This document shows, piece by piece, positions 2,850-30,764 of a stretch of 38,978 nucleotides of DNA. Source of the DNA: a virus (lineage: Duplodnaviria; Heunggongvirae; Uroviricota; Caudoviricetes); IMG/VR virus record IMGVR_UViG_2778261386_000007, one strand, 5' to 3'. Positions within the stretch are counted from its first letter, which is position 1; each line of letters begins with the position of its first letter. The translations under genes and the position numbers were made by a program. The notes below the pieces were generated by a model. It was not told the origin of the DNA. It saw only the letters and a program-made list of their open reading frames with translations, and did not search any database.

Positions 2850-3154
2850 TATTTCACCTCTTGCTGTGACATTGTTGAGAAATGGATACCAGCTCGTTGC
2901 TGCCAGACGATCCAACCGAGAGTCATATCCCATGCCATGTATTCGTTATCGCCGTTTTTTGCTCTCCGACGATCTACTAAGTCACCAAAACGCTTTTCCA
3001 TGAATAATTCATAAGCTTCGCGTTCATCTGGTTCTACTTCCAGAGATAGGAGTGCGATTTCATAAGCACGGCGCTCAATATCGTCTCGCACGTCAAGGCT
3101 GCTGATACGCTCTTTAATTTCTTTAATCAGTTCTTTGTCGGTAAAAGTGGTCAT
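2849..3154 (-). CDS. Hypothetical early-left protein (101 aa)
   Basis: ORF with ATG at 3154, translationally coupled to neighbours on both sides (stop/start overlaps); acidic helical protein, no family recognised. Confidence 0.5.
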   Translation of the reverse strand: MTTFTDKELIKEIKERISSLDVRDDIERRAYEIALLSLEVEPDEREAYELFMEKRFGDLVDRRRAKNGDNEYMAWDMTLGWIVWQQRAGIHFSTMSQQEVK

Positions 3155-3516
3155 TATGCTCCAGCCTCCGGTGCTTTTGGCATTACTGCCCAGTGAGTGA
3201 TATTGACGTTTTCAAGGTCCCCGACCTGAAATGTCCACTGCCATTCTCCGGTTTCTTTTTGTCCCCAGGTGTACCAGAGAGAACGCCAGCCAATTAGCCA
3301 GCCTTCTCCGTTAGCATCGAATAACAAAACACTTTCATTTGCTGGTGGCAGTTCAGTTGACACTGGTATTACTTTGTTTTCCTGTGCTGCACATTTAGCT
3401 TCAAGCGCATCGAATTTACGCACCAGGTATTCAGCATCCGTTTCATTCACTTTCAGATCTCGCGGTACACATCTCCCACGAAGAAACCCTTCCATTTCGA
3501 AAACATTCATGCGCAT
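3154..3516 (-). CDS. Hypothetical early-left protein (120 aa, Trp-rich C-terminus)
   Basis: ATG at 3516 preceded by GGAG 8 nt upstream; tryptophan-rich C-terminus (GEWQWTFQVGDLENVNITHWAV); possibly a DUF551-type phage protein, not confirmed. Confidence 0.5.
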   Translation of the reverse strand: MRMNVFEMEGFLRGRCVPRDLKVNETDAEYLVRKFDALEAKCAAQENKVIPVSTELPPANESVLLFDANGEGWLIGWRSLWYTWGQKETGEWQWTFQVGDLENVNITHWAVMPKAPEAGA

Positions 3517-4043
3517 TTGCGTAACTCCGATAATTCGTTAAAGCGTTCCATAAACATCCCGTAGGCATGGCCTGGAGCCAGTGGAATCACGTTGAACATC
3601 TCTGTTGCCGGGATACCTTCCAGCACAGGCCAGAAAGAGCCATCATCAAGCCCGAGATCGCGGCGTTCGGTTGCCAGCATAATGAGATCGGCATATTTCA
3701 CTGGCGTGCTCATAACAGGAGGTAACCCGTATTTCTCACGGATTACGGCGTCTATTTTTTCTTCCATCCGTTTATAGTCAGGAAGAAGTCGTTTCAGTGG
3801 TGCGGGGATGTCCTGGCAATATGCTTCTGTTGCATCATGCATTAAAGCTTCAAAAGCAAATTCCTGCGGTACCAGCTGGCTGCAAAGCACCGCATGTTGG
3901 GCGACACTGTAGAAGTGTGAAAGATGTCCTGCAAAGCGACAGATATTTGAAAGGGAAACCGCGATATCGTTAATAACGATGTCGTCTTTATTTATCCTGT
4001 CATAATAAAAATGCTTCCCGGAAAAAGTTTTAATAAATGACAT
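3507..4043 (-). CDS. HD-domain phosphohydrolase-like protein (178 aa from preferred ATG at 4043; ORF extends to GTG at 4070)
   Basis: Translation contains H...HD...D-type metal-binding pattern (FAGHLSHFYSVAQHAVL ... LMHDATEAY ... DLIMLATERRDL) reminiscent of YfbR/YfdR 5'-deoxynucleotidase-like HD hydrolases; ATG at 4043 has GGAG 8 nt upstream. Confidence 0.6.
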   Translation of the reverse strand: MSFIKTFSGKHFYYDRINKDDIVINDIAVSLSNICRFAGHLSHFYSVAQHAVLCSQLVPQEFAFEALMHDATEAYCQDIPAPLKRLLPDYKRMEEKIDAVIREKYGLPPVMSTPVKYADLIMLATERRDLGLDDGSFWPVLEGIPATEMFNVIPLAPGHAYGMFMERFNELSELRKCA

Positions 4044-4079: not shown

Positions 4080-4585
4080 TTCGGGTAAAAGGAAGCCCTC
4101 ACCGTCCGGCGATTATTGAGTCAATTACATTTCCATAAATGCCCCCGTAGGGGCGGTTAGTTTCTCCACAAAACAGAGAAGAACACCTGCGGTGGCAGCC
4201 GCCCGGATGGATTGGGTTATGAGCCCGTCGTCCGGTGATGCTCTTCTCTGTTTTGTAAAAATGACGGTACCAGCCGGAAGCAAGGGTACAAACTGGTACC
4301 GCCAGGACTACACACAGCATAAAGTTGTGGTGCCGGGTGCCTCCCGGTGCCTGGCGAAGGTTGCACACCAGGCGGGTGGGTATCCACAGAAGGTCGACTG
4401 TCAGCCTCAACCTTAACCCGCGTGCGCTGAGCCGCATTCACCACAACGCTAAGGATTCTCTCTGGTTGAAAATACTTAGCTGTTATGTGCCTGCTTTTAG
4501 CCACATCAGGCGAGGTGGACCTAGTTATTCCCCAACAACAAGGATTCGGTTAATCTGGTTATCCCCAACAACGCAAAAGGAAAAG
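4080..4585. other. GC-rich structured non-coding region (candidate RNA element) in the early-left operon
   Basis: No protein-like ORF in any frame (overlapping low-complexity Arg/Cys/Pro-rich ORFs in four frames); nested inverted repeats, e.g. ACAAAACAGAGAAGA ... TCTTCTCTGTTTTGT spanning about 4168-4260, GGTACCAG ... CTGGTACC about 4265-4299, GCCAGG ... CCTGGC about 4300-4354; tandem TTAT(T)CCCCAACAAC direct repeat at about 4525-4570. Confidence 0.3.
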
Positions 4586-4587
4586 AA

Positions 4588-5022
4588 ATGTCCGGTAATA
4601 TCTATACGCTGTACAAATCCCACTGTGAAAATGTTGGAAAGTATCGGGGCATTGAAATCAGTGGGGTAGTGTCATCAGTCGAAATAAGCAAAGTTGAATC
4701 AAGGGCAACATTACTTACTCTTTTGGACCTTGTCTTACATGAGCACCGGAAGAAATTCGGCACTCCCTATAATCAATTGAATGGGAAAAAGGCTCTGGTT
4801 CACCTTATTCTGATGAAGCATCACTGGATGCCAAAACAGATTAATGAGATGAAATTTGATGAACTTCTTCTTTCAATTCAGGATGAACTCACACTTGATA
4901 AAATAAGCGTAACCGCCCAGAAATTTTTAGATTATCGAGACTGGAGATCACAAATTCATCACTTTGATGATTTTGACGAAAATGAATGGGATCCTAATTT
5001 GTCTGCACAATATCTAAAGTAA
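4588..5022 (+). CDS. Hypothetical protein (144 aa), AT-rich moron gene oriented against the early-left operon
   Basis: ATG at 4588 with AAGGAAAAG upstream; visibly lower GC than flanking phage DNA; no TM segment, no family recognised; followed on the same strand by a strong terminator at 5260-5283. Confidence 0.6.
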   Translation: MSGNIYTLYKSHCENVGKYRGIEISGVVSSVEISKVESRATLLTLLDLVLHEHRKKFGTPYNQLNGKKALVHLILMKHHWMPKQINEMKFDELLLSIQDELTLDKISVTAQKFLDYRDWRSQIHHFDDFDENEWDPNLSAQYLK

Positions 5023-5200
5023 CATCCTGTGATAAAACCGTGATTTCCTGATCCAGTTTTTTTAAGGAGTCTATTGTTTCCTGTCGATAAGACAGCACTT
5101 CACGAAGCTGGTTTATAGCTGCCAGCTTCTTTGTCATCCACTCATAAATTTCCTCATCTGTGTAGCCAGGCGCGACGATTTTGGGTTCTGTTTTGTGCAT
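4994..5200 (-). CDS. Small hypothetical protein (68 aa), first gene downstream of the putative PL region
   Basis: ATG at 5200 with perfect GAGGAG 7 nt upstream (minus-strand TTGAGGAGATGTGAAATG); occupies the position of N in lambda-type maps but has no arginine-rich motif; 3' end overlaps the convergent 144-aa gene by 29 nt. Confidence 0.45.
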   Translation of the reverse strand: MHKTEPKIVAPGYTDEEIYEWMTKKLAAINQLREVLSYRQETIDSLKKLDQEITVLSQDVTLDIVQTN

Positions 5201-5259
5201 TTCACATCTCCTCAAGTTATCAGTTACTTGTTGATGGGGACCAGATTGTTAAAGAGCTA

Positions 5260-5283
5260 AGCGTCCTGTAGGGCGCTTTTTTG
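5260..5283 (+). terminator. Rho-independent terminator (plus strand)
   Basis: AGCGTCC-TGTA-GGGCGCT hairpin (7 bp including one G-U wobble) followed by TTTTTTG. Confidence 0.6.
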
Positions 5284-5359
5284 TTGCTAACGAATCATCC
5301 TGGACTTCATATGCCCCAGGCGGCTACTTCGTGGGCGTCCTGCCTGTTCGTTGTTTCGC

Positions 5360-5400
5360 TTGGGTACATTATGTATCTCAAAGGTACATTGTCAAGTATA
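5360..5400. promoter_or_regulatory. Candidate OL operator cluster downstream of cI
   Basis: Two GGTACATT motifs 20 bp apart (tgGGTACATTatgtatc and aaGGTACATTgtcaagtat) sharing the GTAC core of the OR palindromes. Confidence 0.35.
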
Positions 5401-5434: not shown

Positions 5435-6109
5435 TTAGGCTTTGATTTTGTATCTTCTTGGTTTTCCTGAGAAAATCACTGTACCAATTATAGAGCAATT
5501 ACCGTTGATCTTAATGTAAGGCTCAGGCCAGTTTGGGTTTAACGCTTTGAGATAACGCTGTGTCCCATCTTCTATCAACCTTTTGAAGGTGGTTTCGCCT
5601 GTATCGTGCATCAATGCAATAACGTCGTCACCGTGGCAGGCAGGTACTTCAGGATCGACAAAAATCATGTCTCCCGGGCGGTACTCATCAATCATTGAAT
5701 CACCTATCACCCGCAAGATATAAGTCATTTCCCCACAGGGTACAGGGCAGGGATACGTTTCTGCTGTGCTCAAATCAACCTCAGAATATCCAACTTCTTT
5801 CCATGCTCCGGCCTGTACCCATGATATGACAGGGACTAATGTGATTTGTTTATTAGTGATTGAAACATCAGGTTTTTTTGTGATGTTCGTTGTCTGGTGT
5901 TCTTGATCGAGCCATCCGACAGGCAGGTCGAAACATTTTTCGATGTGTCGTGCCATGCTGTCACCGATATTTTTAGTAGCACCATCTCCCATAAACCTGC
6001 TGGTCTGGGTTGGCTCGCGATCAATCATAGTGGCAAAGGAAGAATTCCCGCCAACACCATCTCTCAGTTTTCTGGCGTTAGACCGCCGGATGTCATGGAT
6101 TGTTTTCAT
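5435..6109 (-). CDS. CI-type prophage repressor (HTH N-domain plus S24 LexA-like autopeptidase C-domain, 224 aa)
   Basis: C-terminal region ILRVIGDSMIDEYRPGDMIFVD ... LIEDGTQRYLKALNPNWPE contains the Ser (GDSM) and Lys (FKRL) of S24 peptidases; ATG at 6109 with no SD, consistent with a leaderless PRM-type transcript; divergent from cro. Confidence 0.88.
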   Translation of the reverse strand: MKTIHDIRRSNARKLRDGVGGNSSFATMIDREPTQTSRFMGDGATKNIGDSMARHIEKCFDLPVGWLDQEHQTTNITKKPDVSITNKQITLVPVISWVQAGAWKEVGYSEVDLSTAETYPCPVPCGEMTYILRVIGDSMIDEYRPGDMIFVDPEVPACHGDDVIALMHDTGETTFKRLIEDGTQRYLKALNPNWPEPYIKINGNCSIIGTVIFSGKPRRYKIKA

Positions 6110-6199
6110 AACGAAATTAAAACCCTTGTACCGTTAAGGTACAAGTATCTTGAAGGTTCATTTCAATCATGTAATATGTACACCGGAGGTACATATTGT
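6110..6199. promoter_or_regulatory. OR-type operator/promoter region between cI and cro
   Basis: Perfect palindrome CTTGTACC-GTTAA-GGTACAAG at 6125-6145 and ATATGTAC-ACCGGAG-GTACATAT at 6174-6196, the latter overlapping the cro SD GGAGG. Confidence 0.6.
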
Positions 6200-6400
6200 A
6201 TGAAAGCGTATTGGGACTCTTTAACCAAAGAACAGCAGGGCGAGTTGGCCGGAAAAGTTGGCTCAACACCTGGCTACTTACGGCTGGTTTTCAATGGCTA
6301 TAAAAAAGCCAGTTTTGTGCTGGCTAAAAAACTTGAGCAATGCACGTCAGGTGCAATTACGAAATCTGACTTAAGACCGGATATCTATCCGAAAGATTAG
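6200..6400 (+). CDS. Cro-like HTH regulator (66 aa)
   Basis: ATG at 6200 with GGAGG SD; small basic HTH protein (MKAYWDSLTKEQQGELAGKVGSTPGYLRLVFNG) divergent from the repressor; resembles YdaS/DUF1019-type Cro proteins. Confidence 0.78.
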   Translation: MKAYWDSLTKEQQGELAGKVGSTPGYLRLVFNGYKKASFVLAKKLEQCTSGAITKSDLRPDIYPKD

Positions 6401-11298: not shown

Positions 11299-11315
11299 TT
11301 TTGTGGAGAAAGTTG

Positions 11316-11693
11316 ATGCGTGATATTCAAATGGTTCTGGATCGTTGGGGAGCATGGGCGGCGAGTGATAGTTCAGGAGTAGACTATTCTCCTATAGCTG
11401 CTGGGTTTAAAGGGCTTCTTCCCTATACAAGCAAAACACGTCAGGCATGTTCAGATAGTGATGCATTAATTATTGAAGGTTGTCTTGCTCGTCTAAGGCA
11501 AAAAAGGCCGGACGAACATTCGCTTCTTGTTGCCCATTACCTATACGGTATCTCTAAAAGAAAGCTCGCCAAGGCTCGTAAAAAGGATGAGAAACTAATA
11601 CGCATTGAGATACAGATGGCTGAGGGGTTTATTGATGGCTGCCTATCGATGCTGGAAATTAGTCTAGAGATGGACCCCGAAATTAAAGATTGA
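11316..11693 (+). CDS. Late-gene antiterminator Q (QuuD/phage-82 type, 125 aa)
   Basis: MRDIQMVLDRWGAWAA... start and ...MAEGFIDGCLSMLEISLEMD C-terminus match my memory of QuuD-type Q proteins; GGAG 8 nt upstream of ATG 11316 (ORF extends upstream to TTG at 11301). Confidence 0.7.
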   Translation: MRDIQMVLDRWGAWAASDSSGVDYSPIAAGFKGLLPYTSKTRQACSDSDALIIEGCLARLRQKRPDEHSLLVAHYLYGISKRKLAKARKKDEKLIRIEIQMAEGFIDGCLSMLEISLEMDPEIKD

Positions 11694-11699
11694 TTATTG

Positions 11700-11724
11700 A
11701 AGCCCGATTACTCGGGCTTTTGTT
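11700..11724 (+). terminator. Hairpin plus T-tract after Q, overlapping the 3' end of the convergent gene
   Basis: AAGCCCGA-TTAC-TCGGGCTT followed by TTGTT. Confidence 0.45.
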
Positions 11725-12727
11725 CCACATCTCGAACATAGAGAATTACTGCTGACTTAATGTCACCATCGACGTGTTTTGCGTTAATGCTCAAATGTAC
11801 AGGCTTTCTTTCCCACTCAGCTCGCTGCAATGCTTCTTTGTTTCCGGATTCATCAAGGAAAACATCCTGAACTACGCAGGTTAGACGTTGGTCGGTATCT
11901 ACGCGTCGGACCTTAACTTTGAAACTCTCTGGGTCAGTATTATTGACTTCTTCAATTCGGTAAATACCATCAATCCTCATTTCTGATGAACGTCTACGAG
12001 CATTCGTAACCAACTCTTTCGCCATTTCAGAATCAATAGTAACGCCATCAATTTGAGCGTTATCTGAACGCACAAAGGATTTGACCATTTGGGTTTTAGC
12101 GTCATACGACATACGGTCCATGTTATCGAGAAGTGGTTTTTCCGCAATCATTTCTGAAATAACCCGCAGGCGTTTAGTTTCTTGCTCGCTCATGATCTGC
12201 ATAGTCCGGAGATGTTCTTTCTCTCCATCCTTAGCAATTTCTGCAAGGCGAATATCTTTACGGTTGTCCAAGAACCGTTTAAATACTGTTACTCCGCCCC
12301 AGATGACTGCTGCGCCGAGAACAGTAAACATGATCTCAGTTGCGTTCATTTTACCAACAAGTTCCTGTGTGAGTTTGGTTAAAAAGCCATCAATGTTGAT
12401 TTCTACTATTGAAGAACCCTGTTCTACCGTAACTTCTATTTCTAGGGCATCAAGTTCTTCTTTGGTCAGTTTGCGGACGTCAGGGACACCGTACTTGGCA
12501 AGGGCATATGATTTGTTGATTTGAGCTTGCATTTCAACAAATCCCTTCATAACTGAAGGTGTTAGCGATCTGTTGAATTTTTCACCGGTTAATCTGATGG
12601 TAAGGTTTGGCCATCCGTTGAAACTTAAACTGTCAGGTAAACCATAACCATCAAGATAGCTTTCAAGCAAATCGAAGGCTTGCTGCTCAGATTCAATGTC
12701 TACATGAATCTCATCAAACTTATCCAA
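11708..12727 (-). CDS. Hypothetical membrane-anchored protein (339 aa), reverse-oriented moron between Q and the late operon
   Basis: TTG start at 12727 with GAGGA 7 nt upstream; visibly AT-rich; one central hydrophobic segment (EIMFTVLGAAVIWGGVTVFKRF) flanked by charged, helical domains; no family recognised. Confidence 0.6.
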   Translation of the reverse strand: MDKFDEIHVDIESEQQAFDLLESYLDGYGLPDSLSFNGWPNLTIRLTGEKFNRSLTPSVMKGFVEMQAQINKSYALAKYGVPDVRKLTKEELDALEIEVTVEQGSSIVEINIDGFLTKLTQELVGKMNATEIMFTVLGAAVIWGGVTVFKRFLDNRKDIRLAEIAKDGEKEHLRTMQIMSEQETKRLRVISEMIAEKPLLDNMDRMSYDAKTQMVKSFVRSDNAQIDGVTIDSEMAKELVTNARRRSSEMRIDGIYRIEEVNNTDPESFKVKVRRVDTDQRLTCVVQDVFLDESGNKEALQRAEWERKPVHLSINAKHVDGDIKSAVILYVRDVEQKPE

Positions 12728-15875: not shown

Positions 15876-16502
15876 TCAGTTGTCAAATGAATATACGTTA
15901 AAGGTATATGTCGACATAATTTCACCAAGTACCTCAATACATACACTTTTTTTATGAAAATTACTGGGAAATGAACTTAGCTCCTCAAGACATTGCACAT
16001 AAGTGCTGATATCACTTGCATCACGTTCAAGGAATTTCACTTGACCAAAAGAAGGAGTTTTAATCTTGGTTCTTTGCTGGATTATATGGATAAAGTGTGT
16101 AGTTGGTGAAACTATTACTCTTGAAATATCGGAAATGATGTCTTCTTGAACTTGCCGATAAAGTAAATCCTTTGGGTAATGGTGTTTTATCTCGATGGTT
16201 GCAACATTGCCATTATGTTCAGACGTTAATATCGACTGGTTATAAAGTGATATGTCAACAGCGCCGATACCGAGTTTTGGATGCTCACTTAAAGCAGTTA
16301 GTGTGCTGATTTGATTGAGTATAACAACTAACTCATCACGTATTTGTGTTTCATGTTTGCGATTGTAGAAGTAGCCATTCAGTTCATTTAACTTTTTATG
16401 CATCCTATCGTGACTAATTGCTTCGATCAGTAAATCCTGAATCATACTTTTCTCTAGGTAATCCGAACGGTTGTAAGTGACAGTATTGTGCTGGCATGTC
16501 AT
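15876..16502 (-). CDS. Hypothetical protein (208 aa) with possible PD-(D/E)xK nuclease-like motif; downstream gene of an AT-rich reverse cassette
   Basis: Visibly AT-rich; hydrophobic-D ... hydrophobic-E-x-K spacing (GIGAVDISL, then 22 residues, then TIEIKHH); alternative ATG at 16445; no family recognised. Confidence 0.55.
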   Translation of the reverse strand: MTCQHNTVTYNRSDYLEKSMIQDLLIEAISHDRMHKKLNELNGYFYNRKHETQIRDELVVILNQISTLTALSEHPKLGIGAVDISLYNQSILTSEHNGNVATIEIKHHYPKDLLYRQVQEDIISDISRVIVSPTTHFIHIIQQRTKIKTPSFGQVKFLERDASDISTYVQCLEELSSFPSNFHKKSVCIEVLGEIMSTYTFNVYSFDN

Positions 16503-16545: not shown

Positions 16546-16881
16546 TCATCGATAGAAAAACTTTACAGCCCACTCGTAAACAGCTTTGTAAATCGGTTCA
16601 TGGTAAATACTATCGATACTATTCAGATGTGCGATCATCGCCTCCACAGTTGTAGTGGTTGTTTCTAATATTTCGATTATTGCAGGGCGGTCATCATCTT
16701 CATCGAAGTATTCGAACAGCAGTACAGGTTTACCATGCAATTCAGCATCTGAGACTCTAAGGTTACAACTACCGCTCAACTCAAAGTGAATTTTGTAATT
16801 ACCTTCTACAGAATGGCCTACGGGGAAAAAGTATAGGGTGTCATCTTTGTTCAAAAGCCATTCCCATTCATAACTATTCAT
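16546..16881 (-). CDS. Hypothetical acidic protein (111 aa), upstream gene of the AT-rich reverse cassette
   Basis: ATG at 16881 with AGGAG 7 nt upstream (minus-strand AACAGGAGTTCACAAATG); acidic stretch EYFDEDDDRPAIIEILETTTT; 43-bp spacer to the next gene. Confidence 0.55.
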   Translation of the reverse strand: MNSYEWEWLLNKDDTLYFFPVGHSVEGNYKIHFELSGSCNLRVSDAELHGKPVLLFEYFDEDDDRPAIIEILETTTTTVEAMIAHLNSIDSIYHEPIYKAVYEWAVKFFYR

Positions 16882-18002: not shown

Positions 18003-19732
18003 GCCGGAAATCTTACCCCAACGTAAATGCTGCCAATCAGTATGCCCGGGATGTCGTGCGCGGAAAGATTGTGGCCTGCCAGTTTGTGATTCAGGCCTGC
18101 CAGCGCCATCTTGATGACCTGATGGCGGAAAAAAGTAAGTCGTTTCGTTACCGCTTCGACAAGGACCTGGCTGAACGGGCCGCCAAATTTATTCAGCTGT
18201 TGCCGCACACCAAGGGTGAGTGGGCATTTAAGAGGATGCCCATCACGCTGGAGCCGTGGCAGCTCTTTGTGATCTGCTGCGCGTTTGGCTGGGTCAATAA
18301 AGGCTCCCGGCTGCGCCGCTTCCGGGAGGTGTATACCGAAATCCCCCGTAAGAACGGCAAATCGGCAATCTCTGCCGGTGTTGCCCTGTATTGTTTTGCC
18401 TGTGATAACGAGTTCGGCGCGGAAGTGTATTCCGGTGCCACGACAGAGAAACAGGCATGGGAAGTCTTTCGCCCGGCGCGACTGATGTGTAAACGCACAC
18501 CCATGCTGACGGAAGCGTTCGGGATTGAGGTTAACGCCTCAAACATGAACCGTCCGGAGGATGGTGCGCGGTTTGAACCGCTGATCGGTAACCCCGGTGA
18601 TGGTTCATCACCCCACTGTACCGTGGTGGATGAATATCACGAGCACGCCACAGATGCGCTTTACACCACGATGCTTACCGGGATGGGGGCGCGACGTCAG
18701 CCACTGATGTGGGCTATCACCACTGCCGGGTACAACATTGAGGGACCGTGCTACGACAAGCGGCGGGAAGTCATCGAGATGCTCAACGGCTCGGTGCCTA
18801 ACGATGAACTGTTCGGGATCATCTATACCGTTGATGAAGGTGACGACTGGACCGACCCGCAGGTGCTGGAAAAAGCCAATCCAAATATTGGCGTGTCGGT
18901 TTATCGCGAATTTTTGTTAAGTCAGCAGCAGCGTGCGAAAAATAACGCCCGTCTGGCAAACGTCTTTAAAACAAAACACCTCAATATCTGGGTGTCGGCG
19001 CGTTCGGCGTATTTCAACCTGGTGAGCTGGCAGAGCTGCGAGGATAAATCACTGACCCTTGAGCAGTTCGAGGGGCAGCCGTGCATTCTGGCCTTTGACC
19101 TGGCGCGTAAGCTGGATATGAACAGCATGGCGCGACTTTATACCCGCGAGATTGACGGTAAAACGCATTACTACAGTGTAGCCCCGCGTTTCTGGGTACC
19201 GTATGACACGGTGTACAGCGTCGAGAAAAATGAAGATCGACGGACAGCCGAACGCTTTCAGAAATGGGTGGAAATGGGCGTTCTGACCGTTACCGATGGT
19301 GCGGAGGTGGATTATCGCTACATCCTCGAGGAGGCCAAAGCGGCGAACAAAATCAGCCCGGTCAGTGAGTCACCCATCGACCCCTTCGGGGCGACCGGGC
19401 TGTCGCATGACCTTGCTGATGAAGACCTGAACCCCATCACCATCATTCAGAACTACACCAACATGTCCGATCCGATGAAAGAGCTGGAAGCGGCGATTGA
19501 ATCGGGGCGCTTTCATCATGACGGCAATCCCATCATGACCTGGTGTATCGGCAACGTGGTCGGCAAAACCATTCCGGGTAACGATGATGTGGTGAAGCCT
19601 GTCAAGGAGCAGGCGGAAAACAAAATCGATGGTGCAGTTGCGCTGATTATGGCGGTTGGCAGAGCCATGCTGTACGAGAAAGAAGACACGCTGTCTGACC
19701 ACATTGAGTCCTATGGGATCCGCTCGCTTTAA
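17999..19732 (+). CDS. Terminase large subunit (577 aa)
   Basis: ATPase Walker A-like [13 protein letters not shown], then nuclease domain; size and position typical; ATGA overlap with the small subunit. Confidence 0.93.
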
Positions 19733-19743
19733 CTGAGGTAATT

Positions 19744-19926
19744 ATGATCATGCTGATTCTCGCGCCTCTGGTGGGCGTGCTGGGGGCGCTTTTGCTGGCG
19801 TATGGTGCCTGGCTGATTTATCCCCCGGCGGGGTTTGTTGTTGCCGGGGCGTTGTGCCTGTTCTGGTCGTGGCTGGTGGCGCGATATCTCGACCGTACAC
19901 AGTCGTCTGTCGGCGGAGGTAAATAG
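19744..19926 (+). CDS. Small hydrophobic protein (60 aa)
   Basis: Two predicted TM helices ([39 protein letters not shown]); between terminase and portal. Confidence 0.4.
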
Positions 19927-27455: not shown

Positions 27456-29363
27456 ATGGCTGATAATTTTCAGCTGAAAGCCATCATCACCGCCGTTGAC
27501 AGGCTGTCCGGCCCGCTTAAAGGTATGCAGCGTCAGCTTAAGGGGTTTCAGAAAGAAGTCTCCAGCCTTGCTCTGGGCGCTGCCGGGGCGGGTACTGCAA
27601 TAATGGGGGCACTGGCACTCCCTGTAAAATCAGCCATCACCCTTGAATCGAAGATGGCTGATGTCCGCAAAGTGGTAGACGGTCTGGATACGCCGGATGC
27701 GTTTAAGGCCATGACGGAGCAGGTACGCGCTTTGTCTACTGAGCTTCCCATGTCTGCAGACGGGATCGCGGAAATTGTGGCGGCTGGCGGTCAGGCCGGG
27801 ATTGCACGTGATGAACTGATGCAGTTTGCCACTGATGCGGTGAAGATGGGCGTGGCCTTTGATACCACGGCTGAAGAGTCCGGGCAGATGATGGCCCAGT
27901 GGCGTACTGCGTTTAATATGACGCAGGATGAAGTGGCCGGGCTGGCTGACAAAATCAACTACCTTGGTAATACCGGCCCGGCGAATGCGAAGAAAATCTC
28001 CGATATTGTTACGCGTATTGGTCCTTTAGGTGGTGTTGCAGGTGTGGCTTCCGGCGAAATCGCGGCAATGGGGGCAACCATTGCCGGGATGGGCGTGGAG
28101 TCAGAAATTGCCGCCACAGGGATCAAGAACTTCATGCTTTCCCTGACCGCGGGAAATTCCGCGACAAAATCGCAGAAACAGGCATTACGTTTTCTGCGGA
28201 TCAATCCGAAGAAATTAGCTGCTGATATGCAGAAAGATGCCCGGGGAACCATGCTGTCTGTACTGGATGCGATGGCTAAAGTGCCCAAAGAAAAACAGGC
28301 AGCTGTGCTGAATGCCCTGTTCGGGAAAGAGTCTCTGGGCGCGATAGCACCTCTGCTGACTAACCTTGATTTGTTGCGTACCAACTTCAGGCGGGTTGCG
28401 GATTCCCAGCAGTATGGCAGTTCGATGCAGAAGGAATATGCTTCGAGGGCAGCGACGACGGAAAACCAGCTTTTACTTCTGCAAAATCAACTTGATGCCA
28501 TTTCTTCCACGCTGGGGGAAACGTTTCTTCCTGAGGTTAATGATGGTCTTGAAGCGGTAAAACCGCTCCTTGAGGAAGTGAGAACGTTTGTCCGTGAAAA
28601 CCCGGAGCTCGTTAAGACCATTGCTAAAATCGGTCTGGCCTTACTGACGGTGGGAGCCGCTGCAGGCTCTTTGTCCAGAATTATGAAAGTTCTCGGCGGT
28701 GTGATGAATATGACGCCTGCTAAGGGGCTGATTGCTCTTCTGGTTGGTGGCGCTTACCTCATTATTGATAACTGGGAAACCGTAGGTCCTGTCATAAAAA
28801 AAGTCTGGCACGTGGTGGATGAAACGGCGCAGGCGATGGGGGGATGGGAAACTGTTCTGAAAGCGATTGCCCTGTTTATGGCAACCAAATGGGTTGCTGA
28901 CGTTACCAAATCCATTACCGCAGTGACCAGAGAGATGCGTACGCTGGGGAAGGTATCGGCAGAAACGGGATTGATGGGGAAAGGCCGCGGCTTTATCGGG
29001 AAGGCCGGGGTATATGGTTTTCTGGGAACCCTGATGTATGAGCCGGTTAAAGATACTCTGGAAAGTGTTGTTCCTGAAGATACGGTTAACTGGCTGGATA
29101 ATAAAGGGCTGTTTCTGGCTTCAGACTGGACGCCTTTTTTTGATCGTAAAGAGTACGAGCAGTATCAGGCCAGCCTGAGTCAGTACAAACCCAATGTTCC
29201 GCTGTTGAATCCATCTTCTTCCATGACACAGCACAGCGAGCTGAAAGTCACGTTCGAGAATGCTCCGCCAGGTATGAAGATAATTGATGTACCGGGCAAA
29301 GCCGATCCCCTGATGAAAATCACGCACGATGTGGGGTATTCCCCTTTTCGTTTTCCACGATAA
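27456..29363 (+). CDS. Tail tape-measure protein (635 aa)
   Basis: Long Ala/Gly-rich helical protein with hydrophobic stretches, typical of tape-measure proteins; GAGGAG SD. Confidence 0.85.
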   Translation: MADNFQLKAIITAVDRLSGPLKGMQRQLKGFQKEVSSLALGAAGAGTAIMGALALPVKSAITLESKMADVRKVVDGLDTPDAFKAMTEQVRALSTELPMSADGIAEIVAAGGQAGIARDELMQFATDAVKMGVAFDTTAEESGQMMAQWRTAFNMTQDEVAGLADKINYLGNTGPANAKKISDIVTRIGPLGGVAGVASGEIAAMGATIAGMGVESEIAATGIKNFMLSLTAGNSATKSQKQALRFLRINPKKLAADMQKDARGTMLSVLDAMAKVPKEKQAAVLNALFGKESLGAIAPLLTNLDLLRTNFRRVADSQQYGSSMQKEYASRAATTENQLLLLQNQLDAISSTLGETFLPEVNDGLEAVKPLLEEVRTFVRENPELVKTIAKIGLALLTVGAAAGSLSRIMKVLGGVMNMTPAKGLIALLVGGAYLIIDNWETVGPVIKKVWHVVDETAQAMGGWETVLKAIALFMATKWVADVTKSITAVTREMRTLGKVSAETGLMGKGRGFIGKAGVYGFLGTLMYEPVKDTLESVVPEDTVNWLDNKGLFLASDWTPFFDRKEYEQYQASLSQYKPNVPLLNPSSSMTQHSELKVTFENAPPGMKIIDVPGKADPLMKITHDVGYSPFRFPR

Positions 29364-29387
29364 CGCAGTCCTTTTTGAGGTCAGTCT

Positions 29388-30764
29388 ATGGATTTATCCT
29401 CATTTCCCACCCGACCTTCATTACTTTCGTCGTCTTCAGGCTGGCGTGACAGACTTCAGGACGCGTCATTTCGCGGCGTGCCGTTTAAGGTTGAAGAAGA
29501 AAGTGCGGGAACCGGTCGCCGTGTGGAAACACACGAATATCCGAACCGCGACAAGCCCTATACCGAAGATCTGGGAAAAGTCACTTTCCGCCCGTCCATC
29601 ACAGCTTATGTGGTGGGAGATGACTGCTTTGACCAGCGCGATCGCCTGATTGAAGCGCTGAATAAACCCGGTCCCGGCACGCTTGTCCACCCGACATATG
29701 GTGAGCTGAAAGTCTGTGTTGACGGGGAAGTTCGGGTCAGCACATCGAAAAGTGAAGGGCGTATTGTCCGCTTTGACCTGAAGTTTGTCGAAGCAGGAGA
29801 ACTCTCTTACCCCACATCAGGTGCGGCGACGGCGCAGACGCTGATGTCATCCTGTTCTGCACTGGATTACTGCATCAGTGACAGCTTCAGCGGTTTCAGT
29901 ATCGATGGTGTGGCGGATTTCGTGCAGAACGACGTTATCGGTAATGCCAGCATAATGCTGGGGTATGTTTCTGATGCGATGAAAGTGGTGGATTCTGCCG
30001 TATCGGATGCCGCCAGGCTGTTGCAGGGGGATATCTCGGTACTTCTGCCGCCGCCATCGTCAGGCAAAAATTTCGTTGAGCAGGTGCAGAAAATGTGGCG
30101 TACCGGGAAACGCCTTTATGGTAACGCCAGCGACCTGGTCACCATGATCAAAACGCTTTCCGGTGTCAGCCTCGGCAGCGATCTGCAACCGCGCGGCGTC
30201 TGGAAAACGGACAGTAAAACCACCGCCACGGCGACGCAGCAGCGTAACGTGGTTGCCAGCACCCTTCGTACGACCGCAATCAGCGAAGCGGCGTATGCCG
30301 TCACCCGATTGCCTGCGCCAACAACTTCCGCGGTGATGCAGAATTCCGCAGTGGGGCAGGCAACAACACCCGCGCAGAGCACTGGCTGGCCTTCCGTCAC
30401 GCATCCGGCACTGAACAATGCACCGGCGGTGAAAAACACGGTTGACCTGCCGACGTGGGAAGAACTGACTGACATTCGCGACACACTGAATACGGCAATT
30501 GATAAGGAGTTGTCCCGTACAACCAGCGATGCGCTGTTTCTGGCGCTGCGCCGGGTGAAAGCAGATCTGAATGCGGATATCAACACGCGCCTTGAACAGT
30601 CTGCACGGATCATTCAGCGCACACCGGATGAGGTTTTACCCGCGCTGGTGCTGGCGGCGACCTGGTTTGATAACGCGGCGCGTGACGCGGACATTATCCG
30701 GCGTAATGCCATTACGCATCCCGGCTTTGTGCCGGTGATCCCTCTGAAGGTGCCAGTGCAATGA
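29388..30764 (+). CDS. DNA circularisation protein (Mu gp43/N-like, 458 aa)
   Basis: Position after the tape measure in a Mu-like tail module; size. Confidence 0.75.
   Translation: MDLSSFPTRPSLLSSSSGWRDRLQDASFRGVPFKVEEESAGTGRRVETHEYPNRDKPYTEDLGKVTFRPSITAYVVGDDCFDQRDRLIEALNKPGPGTLVHPTYGELKVCVDGEVRVSTSKSEGRIVRFDLKFVEAGELSYPTSGAATAQTLMSSCSALDYCISDSFSGFSIDGVADFVQNDVIGNASIMLGYVSDAMKVVDSAVSDAARLLQGDISVLLPPPSSGKNFVEQVQKMWRTGKRLYGNASDLVTMIKTLSGVSLGSDLQPRGVWKTDSKTTATATQQRNVVASTLRTTAISEAAYAVTRLPAPTTSAVMQNSAVGQATTPAQSTGWPSVTHPALNNAPAVKNTVDLPTWEELTDIRDTLNTAIDKELSRTTSDALFLALRRVKADLNADINTRLEQSARIIQRTPDEVLPALVLAATWFDNAARDADIIRRNAITHPGFVPVIPLKVPVQ

Follow-up and report, generated by a model that had tools for sequence, protein, structure and literature searches.

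Two convergent genes beside a PL-like promoter

The locus described here lies in a window of 38,978 nucleotides (nt), the whole stretch of DNA that was analysed (IMG/VR record IMGVR_UViG_2778261386_000007, a virus of the Caudoviricetes). The window opens in proA and tRNA-Thr (thrW) and then holds a complete SfIV/SfV-like prophage; the host element is an SfIV/SfV-like prophage integrated at thrW. Next to the PL-like promoter of this prophage, two small genes converge and overlap at their 3' ends. They had been singled out in an earlier note, made from the DNA letters alone, in which the larger gene was read as a lysogen-expressed moron with a dedicated terminator and the smaller one as the occupant of the place of lambda N. 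The coordinates, strands, 29-nt overlap and GAGGAG Shine–Dalgarno (SD) sequence given there were reproduced on reanalysis. The following features are needed for the argument.

4588-5022, plus strand: open reading frame (ORF) of 144 amino acids (aa), also called as a gene by the Prokaryotic Genome Annotation Pipeline (PGAP) in an identical prophage
4994-5200, minus strand: ORF of 68 aa counted from ATG, or 73 aa if counted from an upstream TTG at 5215
4994-5022: overlap of the 3' ends of the two genes, 29 nt
5104-5129, plus strand: t1, a terminator-like hairpin with a weak T tail inside the 68-aa gene, missed in the earlier note
5259-5284, plus strand: t2, a strong intrinsic terminator facing away from PL
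5395-5368, minus strand: PL-like promoter, TTGACA-16-CATAAT, matching 11 of 12 consensus positions

Remote-homology searches and structure prediction, both proposed in the earlier note, gave an ECs1072-family, all-helical assignment for the 144-aa protein and a YdfC/Sb50-like helix for the 68-aa protein. The 144-aa ORF is preceded by an SD sequence (AAGGA at 4577-4581, 6 nt before the ATG) and is indeed AT-rich, with a GC content of 37.7% against 50.9% for the whole window. Its product matches NCBIfam model NF033230 ("ECs1072 family phage-associated protein") over residues 4-144 at 157.8 bits (cut-off 70) and phrog_5286 over positions 1-144 of 144 (E 1.5e-90); judged by these matches, it is a full-length member of the catalogued, uncharacterised ECs1072 family. 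An exhaustive profile search resolved this family into 76 clusters at 50% identity, with conserved motifs present across the clusters and full-length members nearly all 143-161 aa long. The gene body was compared with a 72%-identical Escherichia albertii allele, giving a ratio of nonsynonymous to synonymous substitution rates (dN/dS) of 0.24 at dS 0.72, and the gene is therefore under purifying selection. The 5' untranslated region (UTR) is 98.6% identical between the two alleles, from which it follows that the body was replaced as an allele. The AlphaFold2 (AF2) model of the protein is all-helical, with a predicted local distance difference test score (pLDDT) of 78.5 and a predicted template modelling score (pTM) of 0.78. 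Comparison of this fold with others returned no informative match, PADLOC 2.0 held no component matching the protein at E values up to 1, and the same library was empty for the ST64B homologue at E up to 0.01. That no recognisable domain is present would fit an untranslated ORF whose transcript acts as antisense RNA against PL read-through or the small gene. Such a reading is highly improbable, however, given the dN/dS value at that divergence, the near-constant length and shared motifs of the 76 clusters, a fairly confident AF2 model and an SD sequence 6 nt before the ATG.

The 68-aa gene is the first ORF downstream of the PL-like promoter, as the earlier note had it, and carries its GAGGAG sequence at 5213-5208, 7 nt before the ATG. 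It is also AT-rich (40.6% GC). Its product is matched end to end by phrog_1744 (E 6e-35) and is 39-41% identical over 66 aa to proteins of Qin-like and PPompW phages that bear the YdfC-family annotation (E 2e-9). None of the Pfam and NCBIfam models matched it, so that YdfC membership comes from pairwise similarity. An Sb50-family hidden Markov model (HMM) ranks the ORF top among those of the window at 14.1 bits, a score reached by 0 of 2000 composition-preserving shuffles, and hhalign aligns the 68-aa/YdfC set with the Sb50 set at 93% probability (E 3e-7, 57 colinear columns). In its AF2 model (pLDDT 87), an extended N-terminus of 14 residues is followed by one long helix, residues 15-67. The comparisons and the model suggest a YdfC/Sb50-like small coiled-coil or one-helix protein that is not N-like. 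A lambda N-type antiterminator was considered for it and rejected on the features of the protein, with no formal boxA/boxB search of the leader: it has 2 Arg in 68 aa and lacks the arginine-rich motif, as previously noted, has no Pfam hit above threshold and is predicted to form a single helix. In keeping with the earlier failure to see an N homologue, PGAP annotates none in the prophage, the only antitermination protein being of the Q family. PADLOC 2.0 was empty for the 68-aa protein at E up to 1, and no known defence or toxin domain was found in either protein. Both ORFs look like real genes, the larger by its NF033230 score and dN/dS, the smaller by its full-length phrog_1744 match.

Comparison with related prophages shows where the pair begins and ends. 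Relative to SfV, the sequence differs as a block at about 4521-5288, and SfV has an unrelated minus-strand gene, orf33, in that place; relative to prophages of the FORC_042 and N767 types, the segment that varies spans 4573-5240, and their cargo is a single plus-strand gene of 171-173 aa, the end of which is 6 nt away from the terminator block also present here. The cargos found in the slot of other prophages are as follows.

L100 1980-2495, plus strand: other cargo gene
L101 1456-1977, plus strand: other cargo gene
L002 2921-3217, minus strand: SfV orf33

Of these cargos, the FORC_042 gene and SfV orf33 were scanned; both gave nothing above Pfam threshold and were empty in PADLOC. The 68-aa gene lies within the swapped segment and is therefore cargo, not phage backbone. 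Of the 5426 complete E. coli genomes compared, 418 have the large gene, as against 410 with the small gene together with the leader. The two genes, at 39.7% GC for the cassette overall, are by comparison one AT-rich accessory cargo in a conserved slot of the PL leader.

The terminator just before PL is real: t2 has an 8-bp stem with 5 GC pairs (5259-5278) followed by T6 and is predicted to terminate, and its stem is preserved in E. albertii via a two-sided change. Prophages with other cargo, including N767 with its different immunity region, have exactly this right flank (5241-5352), which holds t2 and the PL leader; t2 therefore belongs to the slot and, contrary to the earlier claim, is not dedicated to the 144-aa gene. 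Terminator-like sites are frequent here, with 11 in a 2.5-kb region versus 2.3 expected from shuffles.

These data bear on the original model, in which the 144-aa gene alone serves defence or exclusion in the lysogen and has a terminator to itself, the 68-aa gene being a resident first PL gene that replaces N. Orientation, AT-richness and terminator are as described and no N was found by PGAP, yet the model now appears improbable: the supposed resident sits inside the swapped cargo, equally AT-rich, co-present with its neighbour and YdfC-like; t2 is shared by other cargos; and no defence-library or fold match was obtained. The moron claim thus holds in part. Accessory cargo is supported by comparison (AT-richness, a swapped slot, purifying selection), whereas a defence function found no match among libraries or folds.

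Linkage of the two gene families

A tblastn search detected homologues about 30% identical to the 144-aa protein in ST64B, a Salmonella phage, and in five phages of Klebsiella. All of them lack annotation and are located in the interval from Q to the holin gene, antiparallel to the late genes; each is convergent with, and overlaps at the 3' end, a small gene (Sb50 in ST64B; GP45 in KPP5665-2). The same convergent, 3'-overlapping arrangement occurs in Serratia, Photorhabdus and Providencia genomes. When large-gene loci were searched with the Sb50-family HMM, a convergent small partner was present at 92 of 94, representing 41 distinct sequence pairs. The 3' overlap is 29, 71, 83, 89 or 95 nt in 84 paired loci, and in the remaining 8 the small gene is shortened by a stop or frameshift. 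The E. albertii locus is a 93rd, its partner present with a homopolymer frameshift.

Pairwise identities of the large and small proteins correlate across seven lineages (Spearman 0.78), a descriptive value because the pairs are non-independent. Pairing is kept down to about 27-32% identity for the large and 15-30% for the small protein, at two genomic positions and in at least five genera. In every annotation read (SfIV-type, ST64B, Klebsiella KPP5665-2 and Sakai Sp4), relatives of the 144-aa gene oppose the adjoining lytic operon. The late context is represented by phages of Salmonella, Klebsiella, Serratia, Photorhabdus and Providencia. The orientation of the large gene is head-on to a lytic promoter, with a terminator in or just past the small gene: four distant late-operon cassettes have a plus-strand terminator 26-45 nt past the large-gene stop, embedded in the small gene, and the position of t1 is comparable to these. 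On such comparative grounds, the pair is an old, co-diverging module found repeatedly next to lytic promoters, whether after PL or in the interval from Q to holin.

The reading preferred here, held with moderate confidence, is that the window carries one accessory cassette, in which an ECs1072-family gene stands tail-to-tail with a YdfC/Sb50-like gene in a cargo slot of the PL leader. The two genes probably work together and are less well described as a solitary accessory gene next to one of N type. Several observations count against this reading. The 94 loci are heavily redundant, 65 of them coming from one Klebsiella group, and non-independent pairs underlie the identity correlation. The small gene occurs without the large one in all 19 YdfC-type phage records and also in SKA5 and 118970_sal3, where the order Q, small gene, lysis genes leaves no space for it, and L005 has a 56%-identical large gene without a small partner. 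The connection between the 68-aa protein and Sb50 is remote, with modest scores (14 bits by HMM). On the plus strand, a promoter scan of the region upstream of the 144-aa gene gave no match to the sigma-70 consensus, and the sole expression datum, a growth-phase change on a microarray, concerns Sakai ECs1072, a distant relative (PMC2241611).

Under the preferred reading, the large gene would be transcribed rightward in the lysogen, ending at t1 or t2, so that its RNA would be antisense to part or all of the small gene and transcription would be kept out of PL and cI. Upon induction, PL would transcribe the small gene first and then run antisense through the large gene, shutting the latter down. 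The small protein would probably act on or with the large one. Transcriptional interference through the convergent overlap, raised in the earlier note, is plausible and is strengthened by the conservation of the head-on layout. Taken further, the cassette may represent a previously unrecognised two-component module of a lysogen-expressed effector and a lytic-promoter-driven partner, arranged head-on and mobile among PL, PR' and possibly PR positions; this proposal is a tentative one. If true, expression of the module would track the lysis–lysogeny decision.

Coupling could instead lie at the protein level, with the large protein blocking phage growth in the lysogen and the early small protein neutralising it for the resident phage. 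P22 SieB and Esc work comparably. The parallel divergence of the two proteins, the promoter-proximal position of the small gene in both contexts and the replacement of the gene body alone, typical of arms-race genes, are consistent with an effector and its self-immunity, and the approximately eight Klebsiella-type loci with a truncated small and an intact large gene would fit a partner that is dispensable in the lysogen. This account is nevertheless unlikely, as domains known from defence systems or toxins are absent from both proteins and the small gene is widespread without the large one, which argues that it has a role of its own.

Historical linkage with no functional coupling would require only an ancestral tail-to-tail landing, after which the genes co-travelled because recombination joints fall in conserved flanks. 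Mosaic joints do fall there, each gene can occur alone, and in E. albertii one joint falls within the small gene and is followed by a frameshifted C-terminus. Set against this, pairing, 3' overlap and the embedded terminator persist at low identity, at both positions and across the genera named, and mere co-travel is judged quite unlikely. Under the preferred reading, the linked, co-diverging pair makes two "hypothetical proteins" a testable unit.

A possible third context for the pair is suggested by the arrangement in Sakai Sp4, where the type member ECs1072 opposes the PR operon, with a cII-like gene on one side and O on the other. When 35 kb were searched with the 68-aa/YdfC HMM, an ORF convergent with ECs1072 scored highest, at a weak 12.4 bits. 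The two Sp4 frames (L098 19114-19677, plus strand, and 19361-19816, minus strand) place a reading frame of about 170 aa on the strand antisense to ECs1072; it remains open in a 74%-identical variant (L133 1643-2206), and its N-terminus bears a YdfC-like motif, GGLSDVELAEWL. Dual coding or a longer partner could account for it. A convergent ORF beside YdfC in vB_EcoS-689R5 was also considered as a relative of the large gene and proved unrelated to the 144-aa protein.

Other observations concern individual cassettes. The small gene is disrupted and the large one intact in E. albertii (L006 1070-1327), where a T7/T8 run shifts the frame, and in some Klebsiella prophages (L026, L035, L044, L061 and L068, at about 2990-3206), which have premature stops. 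In the window, the palindrome TGGGATCC at 4987-4994 codes for WDP in the 144-aa protein and directly adjoins the 68-aa gene at its stop codon. In late-operon pairs, WDP occurs in the overlapping C-terminal tails of both proteins (including L007 at about 3690-3700); because TGGGATCCCA is its own reverse complement, a single TGGGATCCCA site could, judging from the protein tails, encode WDP on both strands. In phages with the small gene only, WDP has decayed to WES or RES. Late-type cassettes (L007 at about 3235-3265 and the equivalents in L008, L014 and L025) share a motif 20-45 nt upstream of the large gene, judged by eye and absent from the window cassette, that consists of TTGATA, about 18 nt including TTCGCCAAAA, and a weak -10; this TTGATA-N18 motif may be their large-gene promoter.

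The cargo slot, its leader RNA and the surrounding prophage

The slot itself has conserved flanks, which contain the following elements.

4255-4477, minus strand: STnc100/PasD-like RNA element, left slot flank, downstream of the cassette on the PL transcript
4521-4572, plus strand: upstream slot block with direct repeats TCCCCAACAAC at 4529-4539 and 4562-4572
4552-4571 and 5228-5247: arms of an inverted repeat framing the cargo, AATCTGGTTATCCCCAACAA / TTGTTGATGGGGACCAGATT
5291-5355, minus strand: conserved structured RNA of about 65 nt at the 5' end of the PL transcript, with two helices and an invariant core, AGGCAGGACGCCCACGAAGUAGC

The leader RNA shows compensatory changes in 10 of 14 predicted pairs among eight phages and occurs in 54 phage records from at least 10 host genera. 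Its covariance model finds one copy in the window (89.8 bits), and BLAST for a second copy found none. Positions 5291-5355 gave no Rfam hit, and folds of the PL leader as a single sequence have z near 0. The leader thus carries covarying structure.

On the left, Rfam RF02076 (STnc100) matches 4255-4477 over its full length at 42.3 bits, below the gathering score of 47 (E 3e-7), and tRNA-Thr is the sole Rfam match in the window above gathering score. The STnc100-like element is kept in SfV, SfII, mEp460 and ST64B. STnc100 is a prophage small RNA, reportedly linked to PasD in recent work. PGAP places a "frameshifted hypothetical protein" over the element, at 4125-4444.

The block 4521-4572 is common to the FORC_042 and N767 prophages despite their different cargo gene and is presumed, on this comparison, to be the 5' UTR or promoter region for any plus-strand cargo. 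In FORC_042, the different cargo gene is flanked by a perfect version of 13 nt, AATCTGGATATCC / GGATATCCAGATT, of the cargo-framing repeat (L100, about 1940-1960 and about 2490-2510). This inverted repeat could be a recombination or regulatory site. It was also considered as a long-range RNA pairing and rejected, the E. albertii changes weakening the pairing and not being compensatory, a result that likewise tells against the preferred reading. With conserved flanks, a common terminator and a structured leader RNA, the slot is reusable, and it is a place to seek further prophage accessory genes.

Beyond the slot, Shigella phage SfIV shares 98% identity with the 1.2 kb around the locus, and 400 of 5426 complete E. 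coli genomes contain this 1.2-kb region as a whole (coverage at least 80%). About 8% of complete E. coli genomes bear the exact pair, and relatives extend across Enterobacterales. The remaining features of the prophage, the gene content being that annotated by PGAP in the identical prophage of E. coli LZSFT34, are listed below.

5363-5377: operator-like site overlapping the PL-like promoter, recurring at 6188-6202
5423-5404, minus strand: cI terminator
5435-6109, minus strand: ymfK-type CI repressor (S24 peptidase)
Early-left genes of yfdR/S/T type
Immunity region of e14 type (ymfK, ymfT, ymfL)
Q-family antiterminator, HK97-type head and contractile tail

An ORF of 339 aa (11708-12727, minus strand) lies head-on directly after the Q-family gene (11313-11693). 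This ORF represents a further cargo in opposed orientation, placed where other phages have the ECs1072/Sb50 pair, and had no Pfam match above threshold and was empty in PADLOC. Further opposite-strand genes lie within or at the end of the late region (15876-16445, 16546-16881, 29326-29772 and 37747-38520, all minus strand), their products being two hypothetical proteins, an OB-fold protein and a GIY-YIG protein. These four genes are probably additional accessory cargo.

Comparison with known systems

Accessory genes near the immunity region are familiar in lambdoid phages, as in the morons rexAB and sieB of lambda and sieB of P22. The cassette resembles these in being AT-rich accessory cargo beside cI and PL with a terminator, in a place where neighbour phages hold something else. 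It differs from them in having no sequence or fold similarity to rexAB or sieB, and in being a convergent, overlapping pair that is also found between Q and holin. A type II toxin–antitoxin system was considered and rejected, the genes being convergent and about eight Klebsiella-type loci having lost an intact small gene next to an intact large one. By these comparisons the cassette would fall into a known class, that of accessory prophage genes near the immunity region, outside the characterised defence, exclusion, toxin–antitoxin and antitermination families that were examined.

The structured leader invites comparison with the put antiterminator RNAs of HK022 (PMC9378689). Like put, it is a leader RNA of about 65 nt immediately downstream of PL in a phage without an annotated N. 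Unlike put, it is present in single copy, with no copy on the PR side, and its covariance model has no match in HK022; identity of 5291-5355 with put was therefore rejected. In an alignment of the leader to HK022 putL, only CAGGATGA was in common.

Head-on transcription also has precedents: face-to-face promoters interfere in coliphage 186 (pR and pL), and lambda makes the oop antisense RNA. As in those systems, convergent units, here putatively of the lytic and lysogenic programmes, overlap at their 3' ends. The genes in the present case are accessory, however, and not switch regulators, and the layout is known from sequence alone.

For the small gene, the closest parallel is the dicBF operon of the Qin prophage, ydfA-ydfB-ydfC-dicF-dicB-ydfD, in which YdfC is small and promoter-proximal (PMC5069750). 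The 68-aa gene is likewise promoter-proximal in a repressor-controlled leftward operon and is followed by a small-RNA element, STnc100-like here and DicF in Qin. YdfC-type phages differ in having no ECs1072-family partner, and the pairing offers a first lead from comparison for the YdfC-type genes in operons like Qin dicBF.

Full-text literature searches on both accessions and the family identifiers yielded no paper, and the convergent pairing in two genomic contexts, possibly three, is to our knowledge undescribed. The gene families are already catalogued; what is new is their consistent tail-to-tail linkage and promoter-facing placement. The nearest relatives of the whole arrangement are Sb50 of ST64B with its antisense 144-aa ORF and the equivalents in Klebsiella, Serratia, Photorhabdus and Providencia, which share with the window cassette the same families, the overlap and the embedded terminator. 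The ST64B-type pairs stand in the late leader, overlap by 71-95 nt as against 29 nt here, and encode a small protein of 79-85 aa from an internal start.

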